From assembly GCA_964360965.1 (NCBI GenBank), contig CAYHYM010000010.1, forward strand, positions 19,495 to 26,973: DNA of 7,479 nt. The letters run 5' to 3'. The stretch comes from an uncultured Gammaproteobacteria bacterium (GTDB lineage: Bacteria; Patescibacteriota; Microgenomatia; Daviesbacterales; UBA10151). Every line of letters begins with the position of its first letter. The stretch's first letter is position 1. Under the pieces are notes generated by a model, which saw nothing but the letters and a program-made list of their open reading frames with translations, made no database searches and had not been told where the DNA came from. Positions 290-7,479 of this stretch are shown here, one piece after another. A program made the translations under genes and the position numbers.

Positions 290-371
290 GTCATTCCCGC
301 GCAAGCGGGAATCCAATTCCGAATCAGAGATGGTTAATTGGATCCCTGCATTCGCAGGGATGACAGAAAAG
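290..371. repeat. MITE-like double-hairpin element: an inverted pair of the GTCAT / AATTGGAT hairpin unit, with no gene inside
   Basis: Left arm 290-318: gtcat-tcccgc-gcaa-gcggga-atccaatt. Right arm 334-364: ttaattggat-ccctgc-attc-gcaggg-atgac, followed by the conserved agaaaag. The termini GTCAT...ATGAC are inverted. The same architecture recurs at 4080-4165. Confidence 0.75.
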
Positions 372-3862: not shown

Positions 3863-3955
3863 GAAGCAGTTGAAGGTGAAGTGGTTGAAGATCCTTCGGC
3901 GGGTTCGACAAGCTCACCGCAAGCAAGCTCAGGACAAGGAAAAAAGTCAGAGTAA
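3863..3955 (+). pseudogene. orphan duplicate of the last 31 codons of dnaK, including the stop
   Basis: It aligns without gaps to 2488-2580 at 75/93 identical nucleotides by hand count. It reads [30 protein letters not shown] against [30 protein letters not shown] in dnaK. It begins immediately after the brnA stop and has no start codon or upstream dnaK body. Confidence 0.85.
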
Positions 3956-4066: not shown

Positions 4067-4079
4067 ATTTGCCTCCTTT

Positions 4080-4165
4080 GTCATTCCTGCGAATGCAGGA
4101 ATCTAATTAAAAACTAACTTAAAATGGTTAATTGGATACCGGTATTCACCGGTATGACAGATAAG
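4080..4165. repeat. MITE-like double-hairpin element, second copy, immediately upstream of the GIY-YIG gene
   Basis: Left arm 4080-4108: gtcat-tcctgc-gaat-gcagga-atctaatt. Right arm 4128-4158: ttaattggat-accggt-attc-accggt-atgac, followed by agataag. The layout matches 290-371. Confidence 0.75.
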
Positions 4166-4181
4166 GTGTCATAATTAAACT

Positions 4182-4463
4182 ATGTATTATGTTTACATTT
4201 TAGCTTCTAAAAGAAATGGAACTTTATATATTGGTATAACAAATAATTTAGTCAAAAGAGTATATGAGCATAAAAATGATTTAGTAGAAGGATTTACTAA
4301 GAAATACCAAGTTCATAATCTGGTTTACTTTGAGCCACATGAAGATGTCAATGAGGCTATAACTAGAGAGAAACAAATGAAGGAATGGAAAAGATATTGG
4401 AAAATAAAAACTATCAATAAATTTAATTCTGGTTGGAAAGATTTATACAGCTCAATTGTTTAA
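4182..4463 (+). CDS. stand-alone GIY-YIG (URI-domain) nuclease family protein, 93 aa (UPF0213 / COG2827-like)
   Basis: MYYVYILASKRNGTLYIGITNNLVKRVYEHK... carries the GIY-YIG beta-hairpin motifs (YVYIL ... LYIG) plus the conserved R..EH and the downstream E...E.K..W.R..K segment typical of this family. The stop TAA (4461-4463) lies inside the conserved TTAATTGGAT repeat box. Confidence 0.9.
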   Translation: MYYVYILASKRNGTLYIGITNNLVKRVYEHKNDLVEGFTKKYQVHNLVYFEPHEDVNEAITREKQMKEWKRYWKIKTINKFNSGWKDLYSSIV

Positions 4464-4490
4464 TTGGATCCCCGCGTAGGCGGGGATGAC
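4460..4490 (+). repeat. solo hairpin unit (right-arm type) overlapping the GIY-YIG stop codon
   Basis: ttaattggat-ccccgc-gtag-gcgggg-atgac. The conserved boxes are identical to 334-364 and 4128-4158, and the stem is different but perfectly complementary. Confidence 0.8.
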
Positions 4491-4501
4491 GTAACCGCAA
4501 G

Positions 4502-4538: not shown

Positions 4539-5288
4539 ATGGCTAAAAGAGATTACTATGAAATTTTAGGGGTAAATAAATCAGCATCTACTGATGAAAT
4601 AAAATTAGCTTATAGAAGACTTGCCAGGAAACATCATCCTGATGTAGATAAATCTGCCGGGGCTGCAGAGAGATTTAAAGAAATAGGGGAAGCTTACCAG
4701 GTTTTATCTGATCCGCAAAAGAAACAATCATATGATCAGTTTGGCCATGCTGCTTTTGACAGAGGAGCCGGAGGATATGGTGGAGGAGCAGGGCCTTTTG
4801 GTGGCGGCGGGCAATCCTACAGTTGGTCTACTTCAGGTAACCCCAATATTCAGTTTGACTTTGGCGGATTTGAGGATCCATTTGAACTTTTTGAACAAAT
4901 TTTTGGCGGTGGGTTTGGTGCTGCCATGAGACGCCGCCCAACTTATCAACTTAATCTAACTTTTGATGAGGCCATCCATGGAGTGACTAAAGAAATAGAG
5001 GTGGAAGAAAGAAATAGTCAGGGAAGATTAACTAGAAAGAGACTTAAGATTAAAGTTCCGGCAGGAGTTGATAATGGGACTAGAATGCGTTTTGGTCCGT
5101 CAGCTGACGGATTGGATATTGTATTCAGAGTCCCCCGCCATCCGCATTTTTTGCGAGAAGGAGCGGATATTTTTTCGGAAATTAATATAACTATTCCCCA
5201 GCTGGTTTTGGGGGATATCTTTGAAGTAGAAACTGTTTCCGGAAAAGTCAAGGTAAAAGTCCCTCGGGAACACAACCTGGAAGCTTAG
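4539..5288 (+). CDS. dnaJ: DnaJ/CbpA-like class B J-protein (J domain, G/F region, no zinc finger); the frame ends prematurely because of a frameshift
   Basis: MAKRDYYEILGV...YRRLARKHHPDV...FKEIGEAYQVLSDPQKKQSYDQFG is a J domain with the HPD motif, followed by a Gly/Phe-rich linker. There is no cysteine and so no CxxCxGxG repeats. ...LKIKVPAGVDNGTRMRF is the C-terminal substrate-binding domain. The frame stops at TAG 5286-5288 while the homology continues in another frame. Confidence 0.85.
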   Translation: MAKRDYYEILGVNKSASTDEIKLAYRRLARKHHPDVDKSAGAAERFKEIGEAYQVLSDPQKKQSYDQFGHAAFDRGAGGYGGGAGPFGGGGQSYSWSTSGNPNIQFDFGGFEDPFELFEQIFGGGFGAAMRRRPTYQLNLTFDEAIHGVTKEIEVEERNSQGRLTRKRLKIKVPAGVDNGTRMRFGPSADGLDIVFRVPRHPHFLREGADIFSEINITIPQLVLGDIFEVETVSGKVKVKVPREHNLEA

Positions 5289-5533: not shown

Positions 5534-6589
5534 ATGCAAGTAAGAACTGAATTTGCAGCAGCGCTAAATCAAATAGCCTCTGAAAAAGGGGTTGAACCGT
5601 TAGTGGTTTTAAATGCCATCAAACTGGCTGCTTTGGCTGCTTATAAAAAAGATCTGATGCTTCGCAACGAGCCTGTTCCTGAGGATGTTGAACAGTTTAC
5701 CTCTGATGTTAATGCTGCCACCGGTGAGATTTCCATTTTTGATGGCAAAAAAAATGTTACCCCTCCCGGCTTTGCCAGAATTGCGGCATCTATTGCCAGA
5801 CAGGTGATAATGCAAAGGCTTTATGAGGCAGAAAAAGAGGCAATGTTGAAGGAGTTTGAGGATAAAATTGGGACAGTGATGTCAGGGTCTATCCAGCGCC
5901 AGGAAGGCAGTATCTATTTTGTTGACCTGGGAAGAGCAGAAGGGGTTTTACCCACGGCTGAGCAGACGCAGGGAGAGTTGTATCATCCAAATCAGAGACT
6001 AAAATTTTTTATCAAAGAAATTCGGGAAGAGGGAAGAGGGCCACAAGTGGTACTGTCAAGATCAGATCCGGGTCTTGTCAGGGGACTTTTTAAGCTGGAG
6101 GTACCGGAACTGCAAACAGGAAGGGTGGAAATAAAGGTCGTTGCCAGGGAAGCAGGAGGAAGATGTAAAATTGCAGCTTCTTCACTGCAGGAAGGAGTAG
6201 ATGCGGTAGGCGCTTTGGTGGGACAAAATGGGGGGAGAGTACAGGCAGTGATGCAGGAGCTGGGAGAAGAAAAAATAGATATTATTGCTTATTCGGATGA
6301 CCCTGCCCGTTTTATTGCTGCAGCTTTATCCCCAGCAAAGGATGTTCAAGTTAAGTTGAATGAAGCAGATAAAGTTGCCACTGTGACTATTCCTCAAAGC
6401 CAGCTGTCTTTGGCCATTGGTAAAGGTGGACAAAATGTTAGGTTAGCTGCCAAATTAACTGGTTGGAAGATAGATATTGTAGGTGCAGAAGAGCCTGAAG
6501 CAGTACCAACAGATTCTAGTAAAACAGTAGAAAAACCAGAGAAGTTAGAGGAGCAGAGTGTCAGTGGGTCAGAAAATCAGTCTAAGTAG
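5534..6589 (+). CDS. nusA: transcription termination/antitermination factor NusA (351 aa; N-terminal, S1, KH1 and KH2 domains, no C-terminal AR repeats)
   Basis: MQVRTEFAAALNQIASEKGVEP... is a typical NusA N-terminus. ...GTVMSGSIQRQEGSIYFVDLGRAEGVLP is the S1 domain. ...RSDPGLVRGLFKLEVPE..G.VEIK..AREAG.R.KIA... and ...LSLAIGKGGQNVRLAAKLTGWKIDI are the KH domains. I prefer ATG 5534 over the ORF-track start at 5510, which lies inside the hairpin. Confidence 0.93.
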   Translation: MQVRTEFAAALNQIASEKGVEPLVVLNAIKLAALAAYKKDLMLRNEPVPEDVEQFTSDVNAATGEISIFDGKKNVTPPGFARIAASIARQVIMQRLYEAEKEAMLKEFEDKIGTVMSGSIQRQEGSIYFVDLGRAEGVLPTAEQTQGELYHPNQRLKFFIKEIREEGRGPQVVLSRSDPGLVRGLFKLEVPELQTGRVEIKVVAREAGGRCKIAASSLQEGVDAVGALVGQNGGRVQAVMQELGEEKIDIIAYSDDPARFIAAALSPAKDVQVKLNEADKVATVTIPQSQLSLAIGKGGQNVRLAAKLTGWKIDIVGAEEPEAVPTDSSKTVEKPEKLEEQSVSGSENQSK

Positions 6590-6618: not shown

Positions 6619-7479
6619 ATGGCAGAAAACATAAGACCACCTATTGTAACCATCCTTGGCCATGTTGATCATGGTAAGACTACCTTACTCGATTTTATCC
6701 GTAAATCTAATGTAGCCTCCAAAGAACATGGTGGAATTACCCAACACATTGGTGCCTACCAGATTGAGGTTCCGCAGGAACCGAAATCCCGAGAGAGCGA
6801 AGCGAATCGAGGGATCCTTCGGCAAGTCTTCGACTCCGAGGACTTCGACGGTGAGCTCAGTCGAACCGTCGCTCAGACTCGAGGAGCTCAGGATGATTTT
6901 GCGAATAACCGCAAAATCACTTTCATAGATACTCCTGGTCATGCTGCCTTTGAAAAAATGCGATCTCGGGGTGCAAAGGTTGCGGATATCGCAGTACTGG
7001 TGGTGGCAGTTGATGATGGAATAATGCCTCAAACTATTGAGTCCATAAAACATATTCAGGAAGCAAAGATTCCCTTGATTGCGGCAGTTAATAAGGTAGA
7101 TTTAGCAGGAATTAATTTAAAAGTTCAACTGGAAAAGATCAAAAAACAACTTTCAGATAAAGGAGTTTTGGTTGAAGAATATGGTGGAGATGTGCCTGTT
7201 GTGCCTTTGTCAGCAAAAACAGGAGAAGGAGTAGATAAGCTTTTGGAGATGATTTCACTTGTTGCAGAAATGCATGAGATAAAAGGGGATCCTCAAACTC
7301 CTGCATCCGGGGTGGTAATTGAAGCTAATTTAGATAAATTTAAAGGACCTATTGCCACAATTTTGGTAAGGAATGGCCAACTTAAGAAAGGTGACCAGAT
7401 AATGGTTGGTGGAGTAAAAGGAAGAGTTCGTGGGATGTTTGATTTTTCAGGTAAAAGCTTAGATCAGGCTGGACCATCA
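6619..7479 (+). CDS. infB: translation initiation factor IF-2, 5' part (3' end outside the window), carrying a 47-codon in-frame insertion
   Basis: Not listed in the ORF track because there is no stop in the window. I read the frame codon by codon through 6960 (the whole insert and both junctions) and translated the rest at sight, without seeing a stop from ATG 6619 to 7479. [25 protein letters not shown] (G1), [10 protein letters not shown] (G2), [10 protein letters not shown] (G3), NKVD (G4), SAKTG (G5), then ...[29 protein letters not shown]... (domain II). An in-frame TGA at 6592-6594 rules out any N-terminal extension. Confidence 0.93.
6769..6909. repeat. 141-nt GC-rich palindromic repeat block inserted in frame in the infB G domain
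   Basis: 79/141 G+C (56%) by hand count, against 23/60 in 6661-6720 and 20/60 in 7081-7140. Hairpins: ggttcc-gca-ggaacc (6767-6781), atccc...gggat (6786-6815) and gacggt-N12-accgtc (6846-6869). The GGATCCTTCG, (C)TTCGAC x2, GCTCAG x3 and GCTCAGGA motifs are shared with the dnaK tail repeats. Other bacterial IF2 proteins have only about 5-8 residues here (E. coli AYHVETENGMITFLDTPGH). Confidence 0.7.

Follow-up and report, generated by a model that had tools for sequence, protein, structure and literature searches.

The gene infB, encoding translation initiation factor 2 (IF2), carries an in-frame insert of 141 nt in its G domain on contig CAYHYM010000010.1 of the assembly GCA_964360965.1, which stems from an ultra-small bacterium of groundwater. 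The analysed stretch of this contig, in the following called the window, comprises 7,479 nt (contig positions 19,495 to 26,973), and the nearest relatives of its IF2 are the IF2 proteins of Candidatus Daviesbacteria and other Patescibacteria. The analyses indicated that the 141 nt are probably a stack of GC-rich hairpin repeats, similar to repetitive extragenic palindromic (REP) sequences, which accumulated at the beta2-beta3 hairpin tip in the G domain, always in frame, and which would be translated as a loose surface excursion. All coordinates are those of the window, and features lie on its plus strand unless stated otherwise.

An in-frame insert of 47 codons in the G domain of IF2

The infB reading frame starts at position 6619 directly at the G domain and is truncated by the window end at 7479, so that only the first 287 codons are present, with intact G1 and NKVD motifs. 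The fragment matched PF00009 with an E value of 3.7e-41, and its top match in the PDB was the IF2 of Thermus (1.8e-74). The whole insert (6769–6909) lies between strand beta2 (AYQIE) and strand beta3 (KITFID). An earlier inspection of the letters alone, here called the sequence-only reading, had proposed 47 extra in-frame codons at this site, and both the coordinates and the translation proved to be exact: the insert encodes 47 residues in frame with infB and contains no stop codon. Its GC content is 56.0%, compared to 40.0% over the full length of the window and 40.1% in infB outside of the insert; the claimed GC contrast thus held for the insert (56%), while the flanks, which had been put at 33–38%, are richer in GC than claimed. 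The hairpins and repeats that had been listed are present (two copies of CTTCGAC, three copies of GCTCAG and many short inverted repeats), and it was verified that the insert is open in three frames, i.e., +1, +2 and one minus frame. The RNA of region 6760–6920 was predicted to fold with −63.8 kcal/mol, which corresponds to z = −3.4 in comparison to dinucleotide shuffles.

In 82 of 120 close IF2 relatives the spacer between the GGITQ and the DTPG motifs has 17 residues (HIGAYQVEHDGKLITFI), versus 61 residues in the window. With this commonest Daviesbacteria form as a reference, the net gain therefore is 44 codons. The beta2-beta3 turn itself comprises 2–5 residues in most Daviesbacteria IF2s and in the solved bacterial IF2, and the Thermus protein has 2 residues at the place where the window has 46. 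The sequence-only reading had also remarked that archaeal aIF5B is longer at the insertion point, and the offsets of the PDB matches fit to this: a/eIF5B chains have about 18 residues between the matched stretches, in contrast to the 2 residues of Thermus IF2. An AlphaFold model, which was based on an alignment of 63 sequences, placed the insert (residues 51–97) between beta2 (residues 45–50) and beta3 (residues 99–104), as expected for the surface loop that had been suggested, with low confidence in this part; the predicted local distance difference test score (pLDDT) was about 47–60 for the insert and above 90 for the core of the G domain. The insert is thus predicted to reside in an exposed part of IF2 and to leave the fold intact.

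The beta2-beta3 loop of IF2 is an insertion hot spot. Unrelated inserts are found in the same loop of other Daviesbacteria, i.e., in L025 (10001–11491) and L026 (10001–11503), and of many IF2 relatives, for example VQSEKGKVQSGLNTQHSS and SVQGTGDSGQSDKKSSELKPVTSN. Those of the other Daviesbacteria have a normal GC content, and each forms a long imperfect hairpin in the DNA. Also the insert-free relative L027 has a small hairpin at the loop (TTACC-CATGAT-GGTAA).

The insert is built of nested hairpin layers

The comparison with relatives indicates that the insert is a nested composite and not one 141-nt element, because their DNA reveals a layer-by-layer build-up. Four hairpins can be distinguished. 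Hairpin h1 (6768–6782) has the sequence GGTTCC-GCA-GGAACC, and relatives have GATTCC..GGAATC, GGTTCATCC..GGATGAACC and similar versions. It is followed by the core of hairpin h2 (6788–6813, CCCGAGAGAGCGAAGCGAATCGAGGG), which includes the mini-hairpin motif GCGAAGC, and by hairpin h3 (6814–6894), which is closed by ATCCT/AGGAT (ATCCC/GGGAT in relatives) and is 81 nt long in the window and 21 nt long in L001 and L015. The last hairpin, hB (6894–6919, TGATTTTGCG-AATAAC-CGCAAAATCA), reaches into the conserved part of the gene: its 3′-arm consists of the codons R-K-I-T of strand beta3, and its 5′-arm, encoding DDFA, is the reverse complement thereof.

The same codon position was found in successive states of filling. 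Relatives lack the insert with clean boundaries, among them L027, which represents the empty site. In L002 and L003 only h3 and hB are present; these loci read GAG|ATCCCTCGACAAGCTCGGGATGATTTT|GCAGAAAACCGCAAAATCACT, which amounts to 27 extra nt and the peptide IPRQARDDF. L001 has gained a further 45 nt on the 5′-side (ATTCCCGAGGAATCGAAATCCCGAGAGAGCGAAGCGAATCGAGGG), resulting in h1, h2, h3 and hB and in 72 extra nt in all. The window has yet another 60 nt within the loop of h3. A pairing between h2 and h3 (TCGAGGGAT/ATCCCTCGA, a perfect palindrome) was considered and rejected, since a C-G to T-A covariation favors the local stem of h3.

Among the carriers of the insert the length of h3 is 21, 24, 30, 51, 51 or 81 nt, and also the lengths of h1 and hB vary. 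All of these variants are multiples of three without a stop codon, and 10 of 10 infB matches of a DNA scan that was blind to the frame were in frame and stop-free. This fits to translation through the insert, while splicing or ribosomal bypass would not impose such a constraint. An Rfam search of both strands of the window with E values up to 1 yielded no match and thus no ribozyme, intron or described RNA family. An intein was not detected either: the insert has 47 residues, whereas the splicing domain of an intein needs about 130 or more and has conserved end motifs, the IF2 fragment had no match to an intein or Hint family of Pfam, and the Pfam matches that were obtained were restricted to families of the GTPase superfamily and of EF-Tu/EF-G domain 2. 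A hammerhead-like core (GUUGAG...CGAAA) was rejected as a candidate, because it misfits the consensus, its GAAA is paired in L017, and Rfam remained silent. In a distant IF2 fragment, P0128, the h1-h2 peptide is present and the IF2 frame is lost within the h3 region, which could be due to a sequencing error in the hairpin, a pseudogene or something else.

A hairpin skeleton at one infB site across CPR genomes

The skeleton of h1, h2, the ends of h3 and hB (about 80 nt) is found as an insertion at exactly this infB site in many lineages of the Candidate Phyla Radiation (CPR), some of them very distant. An exact scan of 185,579 species-representative genomes with the 26-nt core of h2 revealed 12 carriers. 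In 10 of them the core is located at the same site of infB, and all ten also have h1, h3 and hB in frame. Two additional carriers were found via protein variants, namely L029 with a shorter h2 center and L028 with a longer and more complex h2 region in a gene of 61% GC. Altogether, at least 13 CPR genomes have the skeleton at this position of infB, and it is in frame in all of them. The IF2 proteins of the carriers are down to 45–55% identical to that of the window over 170 residues, and in a rough tree of the Daviesbacteria cluster carriers were intermixed with insert-free and differently inserted sequences. A search of cluster representatives, which was used only to find variant peptides, yielded 10 matches, because full-length IF2 proteins collapse at 50% identity, and a search with a 50-residue query centered on an insert of the L001 type yielded no match. 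At the protein level the pattern S-R-...-R-G-I-P-R-...-R-D-D-F-...-R-K-I-T-F recurs in distant IF2s.

The two remaining carriers of the 26-mer, both outside of infB, are genomes of Margulisiibacteriota (L021 640–665 and L022 7888–7913); hence the motif crosses phylum boundaries. From reading the flanks, the L021 hairpin follows an apparent tRNA 3′-end and precedes a T-run.

Conservation was found at the level of the nucleotides and their pairing. The infB genes of the window and L001 are 76% identical, yet 36 of 36 consecutive nt across h2 are the same. The invariance of the 26-mer is in part ascertainment, because the ten loci were found with exactly this sequence, and the neighboring GAAAT and ATCC, which were outside of the search pattern, are also conserved. 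For an analysis of covariation the ten infB loci were aligned and the variable interiors of h3 were trimmed. In the helices of h1, h3 and hB 98.1% of the cells were paired and six pairs had changed on both sides, whereas in a control with partners slid by 1–3 columns pairing dropped to 33–55% with at most one double-changed pair. The h1 helix was 97% paired with three pairs changed on both sides (GATTCC/GGAATC, GGTTCC/GGAACC and GGTTCATCC/GGATGAACC), and the closing stem of h3 is either ATCCC/GGGAT or ATCCT/AGGAT, a compensatory pair. The hB helix was 97.7% paired and showed UA/CG and GC/UA/AU covariation, with three pair types at one position (variants GATTTTGCG/CGCAAAATC, GATCTTGCG/CGCAAGATC, GATTTTACG/CGTAAAATC and GATTTTTCG/CGAAAAATC); here, synonymous changes in the beta3 codons are matched by amino acid changes in the inserted DDF(A).

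RNAalifold predicted the same helices together with an invariant h2 stem. A covariance model that was built from the ten loci was used to scan 208 kb and gave full-length matches only at infB; matches outside of the training set were L029 (97 bits), L028 (56 bits) and L002 (56 bits). A cluster of h1-like and h3-like hairpins (TCCTTCGCGAAGCTCAGGATGAC) was observed in the distant CPR locus L023 (4547–4651, minus strand), where it is located on the other strand about 500 nt upstream of the infB insert and scored 27.7 bits with the covariance model.

A 60-nt module nested in h3

The innermost layer is a module at 6826–6886 (GTCTTCGAC...CTCGAGGAG), which adds a net 60 nt and has one ambiguous boundary G. 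Empty and filled sites can be compared directly: in L015 and L019 the h3 hairpin reads ATCCTTCGACAAGCTCAGGAT, while in the window it reads ATCCTTCGGCAAG, followed by the 60 nt and CTCAGGAT. The 5′-junction was independently confirmed by L004, a Hainich groundwater contig with 99.94% identity to the window over 6832 nt. L004 spans the upstream junction, continues for a few bases into the module and stops there, at window position 6832.

The sequence-only reading had proposed to look for further copies in genes and in intergenic regions, and copies of both kinds were found. A protein search with the six-frame translations of the insert, joined end to end, against 5.8 billion proteins yielded P0121 as the sole match; short matches such as P0001 stay below the threshold, and hence this search is insensitive to partial copies. 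P0121 is an unrelated protein of 191 residues (DNA L006) with a matching stretch of 26 residues, in which 76 of 76 nt are identical to window positions 6818–6893, in frame. Other stretches of this gene (L006 880–950 and 1056–1164) are also repeat-like and in frame, namely ITNHQSQITNHKS and a duplicated KVQS. An exact 30-mer of the module was present in six metagenome contigs of the Joint Genome Institute (JGI), which represent four distinct loci, none of them infB: the P0121 gene, the locus L007/L009/L010 without a convincing gene across the module, a tandem array in L008 and a further locus in L011. In L007 the module is surrounded by long imperfect terminal inverted repeats. When the 141 nt were compared by BLAST with related loci (63 kb in total), no long copy appeared outside of infB. 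Taken together, the copies at unrelated loci argue that the 60-nt module is a separate dispersed repeat, and among the parts of the insert it looks like the only recent one.

A dispersed family of short hairpins

Many hairpins of about 24 nt are scattered over the intergenic regions of Daviesbacteria; their ends are GAT...ATGA(C/T), and their stems are variable but complementary. Examples are L002:837 (GATCCTTCGCTCCGCTCAGGATGAC), L026 at 4694 on the minus strand (GATCCTTCGTTTCACTCAGGATGAC) and, from the window's own genome, an intergenic hairpin in L004 at 2028 on the minus strand (GATCCTTCG...CTCAGGATGAC). A loose scan detected 112 hairpins versus about 55 in shuffled sequence, and the excess includes compact hairpins of about 21–37 nt. 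Judged by its length and its ends, the infB hairpin h3 is a member of this dispersed GAT...ATGAC family.

Five family hairpins are present in the window (290–318, 336–364, 4080–4108, 4130–4158 and 4462–4492). The first two form an intergenic doublet in inverted orientation (288–365, GTCATTCCCGCGCAAGCGGGAATCC ... GGATCCCTGCATTCGCAGGGATGAC), for which no strand is assigned. They are 17 nt apart between grpE and the next open reading frame (ORF), a layout like that of REPINs (REP doublets forming hairpins), and a spurious ORF across them reads SFPRKRES...WIPAFAGMT. The other three (4079–4492) surround a gene for a GIY-YIG protein of 93 residues (4182–4463), with 4080–4108 on the minus strand and 4130–4158 and 4462–4492 on the plus strand. 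The same arrangement with a GIY-YIG gene of 98 residues was observed in an independent locus, L026 (about 4670–5050). Both loci lie between dnaK and dnaJ, and their hairpins are oppositely oriented, reminiscent of a miniature transposon. It is possible, from this adjacency only, that the small GIY-YIG gene is the autonomous partner of the hairpin family.

Related elements were also found within other genes. The C-terminal tail of DnaK contains an element of 48 nt (2515–2562), which encodes 16 residues and is missing from four Daviesbacteria DnaK tails (EGEVVEEEKKE). The claim that the insert shares motifs with the repeats of the dnaK tail was confirmed: positions 2514 and 6812 have the 10-mer GGATCCTTCG in common, positions 3890 and 6813 the 11-mer GATCCTTCGGC, and AGCTCAGGA is present at all three places. 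For a given 10-mer, the calculated chance expectation in 15 kb is about 0.014. A second copy of the dnaK 3′-end, including the family element, is located 1375 nt downstream (3863–3945) and is 84% identical. The two copies, i.e., the last 83 nt of dnaK (2488–2570) and 3863–3945, bracket an ORF of 199 residues without known function and a BrnT/CopG pair, as if cargo had inserted into the 3′-end of dnaK and had thereby duplicated the target. Between dnaK and dnaJ each relative has a different cargo. Just 5′ of the DnaK-tail element the region 2428–2470 has 59% GC and appears palindromic (CCTCGGA...TCCGAGG). In grpE an h2-like hairpin (CCTGAGCGAACGAAGTGAGTCGAAGG, encoding LSERSESKD/G) was seen in frame in L004 (3138–3164), L025 (4733–4760) and L027 (3405–3432). 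By position, family hairpins lie also within the 3′-ends of grpE (L002, about 2316–2400) and nusA (L025, about 9565–9665).

Gene context of the window

The window starts with the end of grpE, followed by dnaK (616–2580), the ORF without known function, the BrnT/CopG toxin-antitoxin pair, the small GIY-YIG nuclease gene, dnaJ, nusA (ending at 6589) and the infB fragment from 6619. The order hrcA-grpE-dnaK-...-dnaJ-...-nusA-infB is common to the window and its Daviesbacteria and Patescibacteria relatives. In comparison to L004 one base is missing at position 5264, which frameshifts dnaJ (an ORF of 249 residues in the window, 309 residues in L004) and could be either genuine variation or an error of sequencing or assembly.

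Discussion

The layered sites, the membership of h3 in a dispersed family and the copies of the module are best accommodated by the probable accumulation of REP-like hairpin repeats at a tolerant site of infB. The hairpins would be copied as DNA, and a trans-acting enzyme would be the likely agent. Candidates could be the flanked small GIY-YIG nucleases or a transposase of the Y1/RAYT type (RAYT, REP-associated tyrosine transposase); a gene of 166 residues in L002 has a weak hit to PF01797, a Y1-transposase-like family. Landings within genes would survive only at tolerant places of the protein and with an intact frame, and resident stems may then be held by selection on nucleic acid structure or by template-switch repair.

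Several observations weigh against this explanation. The 3′-junction of the module was seen in this window only, because L004 ends inside of the module. The DNA scans of relatives covered 10-kb flanks. A target-site duplication is missing at infB, and the 13-bp direct repeat AAAGTTCAAAGTT that flanks the module copy in L006 may belong to another repeat. No transposase or nuclease is tied to the hairpins, the GIY-YIG and Y1 links being adjacency only. Lastly, the exact 26-mer is single-copy in each carrier genome and is found in infB in 10 of the 12, which resembles a conserved element bound to its site more than a repeat that is scattered. Its identity despite only 45–55% identity of the IF2 proteins needs nucleotide constraint or horizontal spread and is not explained by passive tolerance. 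Two features exceed the picture of a passive repeat: across deep lineages the skeleton keeps to a single site of a single gene, and the pairing of its stems is preserved. Both could be explained by selection on an RNA or DNA structure, and template-switch repair could explain part of it.

Elements of this kind have several known counterparts. Rickettsia palindromic elements (RPEs) and other small repeats fuse in frame to reading frames (PMC3184786). RPEs (Ogata et al., 2000, as summarized in PMC3184786) resemble the insert in being palindromic repeats of about 100–150 nt that are found both in frame in housekeeping genes and between genes, that are tolerated in exposed regions and that occur in small genomes; in-frame, stop-free insertion into coding genes was found here for infB, the DnaK tail and P0121. 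The sequence-only reading had proposed a family analogous to the RPEs. This was supported in part: the insert is in-frame, GC-rich and palindromic, it lies in an essential protein's loop, and it has relatives elsewhere, but it is not a single 141-nt element, and most of it is not specific to this lineage. The differences to RPEs are the host, a Daviesbacteria-like member of the CPR/Patescibacteria in which membership by sequence is not expected, the nested stack of short hairpins plus a 60-nt module instead of one unit, and the binding of the skeleton to one site in one gene across distant lineages with covarying stems.

With REPs and REPINs the hairpins share the form of short (about 24–35 nt), GC-rich, imperfect palindromes with a conserved terminal motif, the abundance between genes and the long-lived families (PMC3116915, PMC3337134), and also inverted doublets, as at 288–365 of the window and in the mutually complementary h2 and h3. 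However, the conserved end is ATGAC(A/G), i.e., GTCAT on the other strand, and not the GTAG of REPs. In addition, REPs are typically extragenic, whereas the hairpins described here occur also in frame within genes, and instead of a RAYT, which was not found in the window, the neighbors are small GIY-YIG proteins. MITEs, i.e., miniature transposable elements with inverted repeats, and other small repeats are likewise non-autonomous, form stem-loops and make internal or 3′-terminal in-frame fusions (PMC3184786), comparable to those in the DnaK tail and in the GrpE and NusA tails of relatives. Terminal inverted repeats matching a known insertion sequence and a consistent target-site duplication were not found here. 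In the literature, the coverage of which was incomplete, no description of such elements in CPR bacteria was found.

Among the alternatives, it is conceivable, though on balance unlikely, that the skeleton is a functional structured nucleic acid element within the infB frame that is kept by selection, for example a structure in the mRNA by which translation is slowed or regulated, a site of processing or protein binding, or a site in the DNA, with h3 as a variable arm that tolerates extra sequence. This would be in accord with the shared position in no fewer than 13 infB genes of CPR lineages with IF2s of 45–55% identity, with the identity of the core in ten loci and the conservation of the unselected GAAAT and ATCC, with three helices that have compensatory changes, some of which combine a synonymous change in beta3 with an amino acid change in the loop, with full-length covariance model matches only at infB in the 208 kb, and with the persistence of a high GC content in genomes of 40% GC. 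Against it speak the silence of Rfam up to E = 1, the absence of the skeleton from most close relatives, some of which have only h3 and hB, and the differing h2 centers of L029 and L028. Furthermore, the search with the exact 26-mer accounts for part of the invariance, template switching can keep stems paired without selection (PMC8794818), and h3 plainly belongs to a dispersed repeat family.

Replication template switching is known to make and maintain hairpins (PMC8794818), and the palindromes might have arisen in situ by fold-back copying of neighboring sequence at a tolerant site without any mobile element. It would fit that the 5′-arm of hB repeats the adjacent beta3 codons as their reverse complement, that compensatory-looking double changes occur, both likenesses to template-switch hairpins (PMC8794818), that unrelated palindromic inserts of normal GC are found in the same loop of L025 and L026, and that L027 has a small hairpin there without an insert. 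As a full explanation it is improbable, because template switching is a mutation process and not a repeat family, and it leaves identical copies at unrelated loci unexplained, namely the 76 of 76 nt shared with an unrelated gene, the module copies elsewhere and the identity of the 26-mer to intergenic hairpins of another phylum. It may account for hB and for the upkeep of the stems.

That the insert is an ordinary, lineage-specific protein loop under selection only at the amino acid level is very improbable. The peptide pattern does recur in distant IF2s, but protein-level conservation with synonymous drift and normal GC content, which the sequence-only reading had named as a refutation, was not what was found. 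Instead, nucleotides and pairing are conserved (36 of 36 nt between the window and L001 despite 76% identity of infB), GC-rich codons that are rare in a 40% GC genome are kept, the base pairs covary, the same DNA exists outside of infB, and the distribution among close relatives is patchy.

An assembly artefact or untranslated sequence, either spliced out or bypassed by the ribosome (GC-rich inserts in AT-rich genes are bypassed in some yeast mitochondria), is hardly credible: L004, with about threefold coverage by its name, does break inside the module and P0128 appears frameshifted inside h3, but the 5′-junction is independently confirmed, the gene continues in frame into the expected hB and IF2 sequence, independent length variants are all multiples of three without stops, and no ribozyme or intron family matched.

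With the accumulation of hairpin repeats as the preferred explanation, a further-reaching proposal can be formulated, which we regard as speculative and rather doubtful. Across the CPR, the unit h1-h2-h3-hB might act within the infB frame as a conserved and functional structure of RNA or single-stranded DNA, doubly constrained by its peptide and its stems and with the h3 arm as a landing pad for further hairpin repeats. The GAT...ATGAC hairpins and the flanked GIY-YIG nucleases might together be a mobile hairpin system that is so far undescribed and by which the loops and tails of core proteins of the CPR (IF2, DnaK, GrpE and NusA) are remodeled.

Insertions that lack an explanation are frequent in the core proteins and rRNAs of CPR bacteria, the genomes of which are tiny. 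The accumulation of hairpin repeats would provide a concrete route at the DNA level for such insertions: short hairpin repeats land in frame where the loops or tails of essential proteins tolerate them, and further repeats are then stacked upon these. For a single codon position of IF2, the series that leads from an empty site up to three layers is unusually complete. It also offers a test case for whether hairpin stems in coding regions are kept by selection or by the replication machinery; the covariation observed here includes a stem of which one arm encodes a conserved beta strand. The GIY-YIG link, if confirmed, would define a small mobile system of a new type, and if the skeleton is functional, a structured element would be hidden in the G domain of the gene for an essential GTPase.

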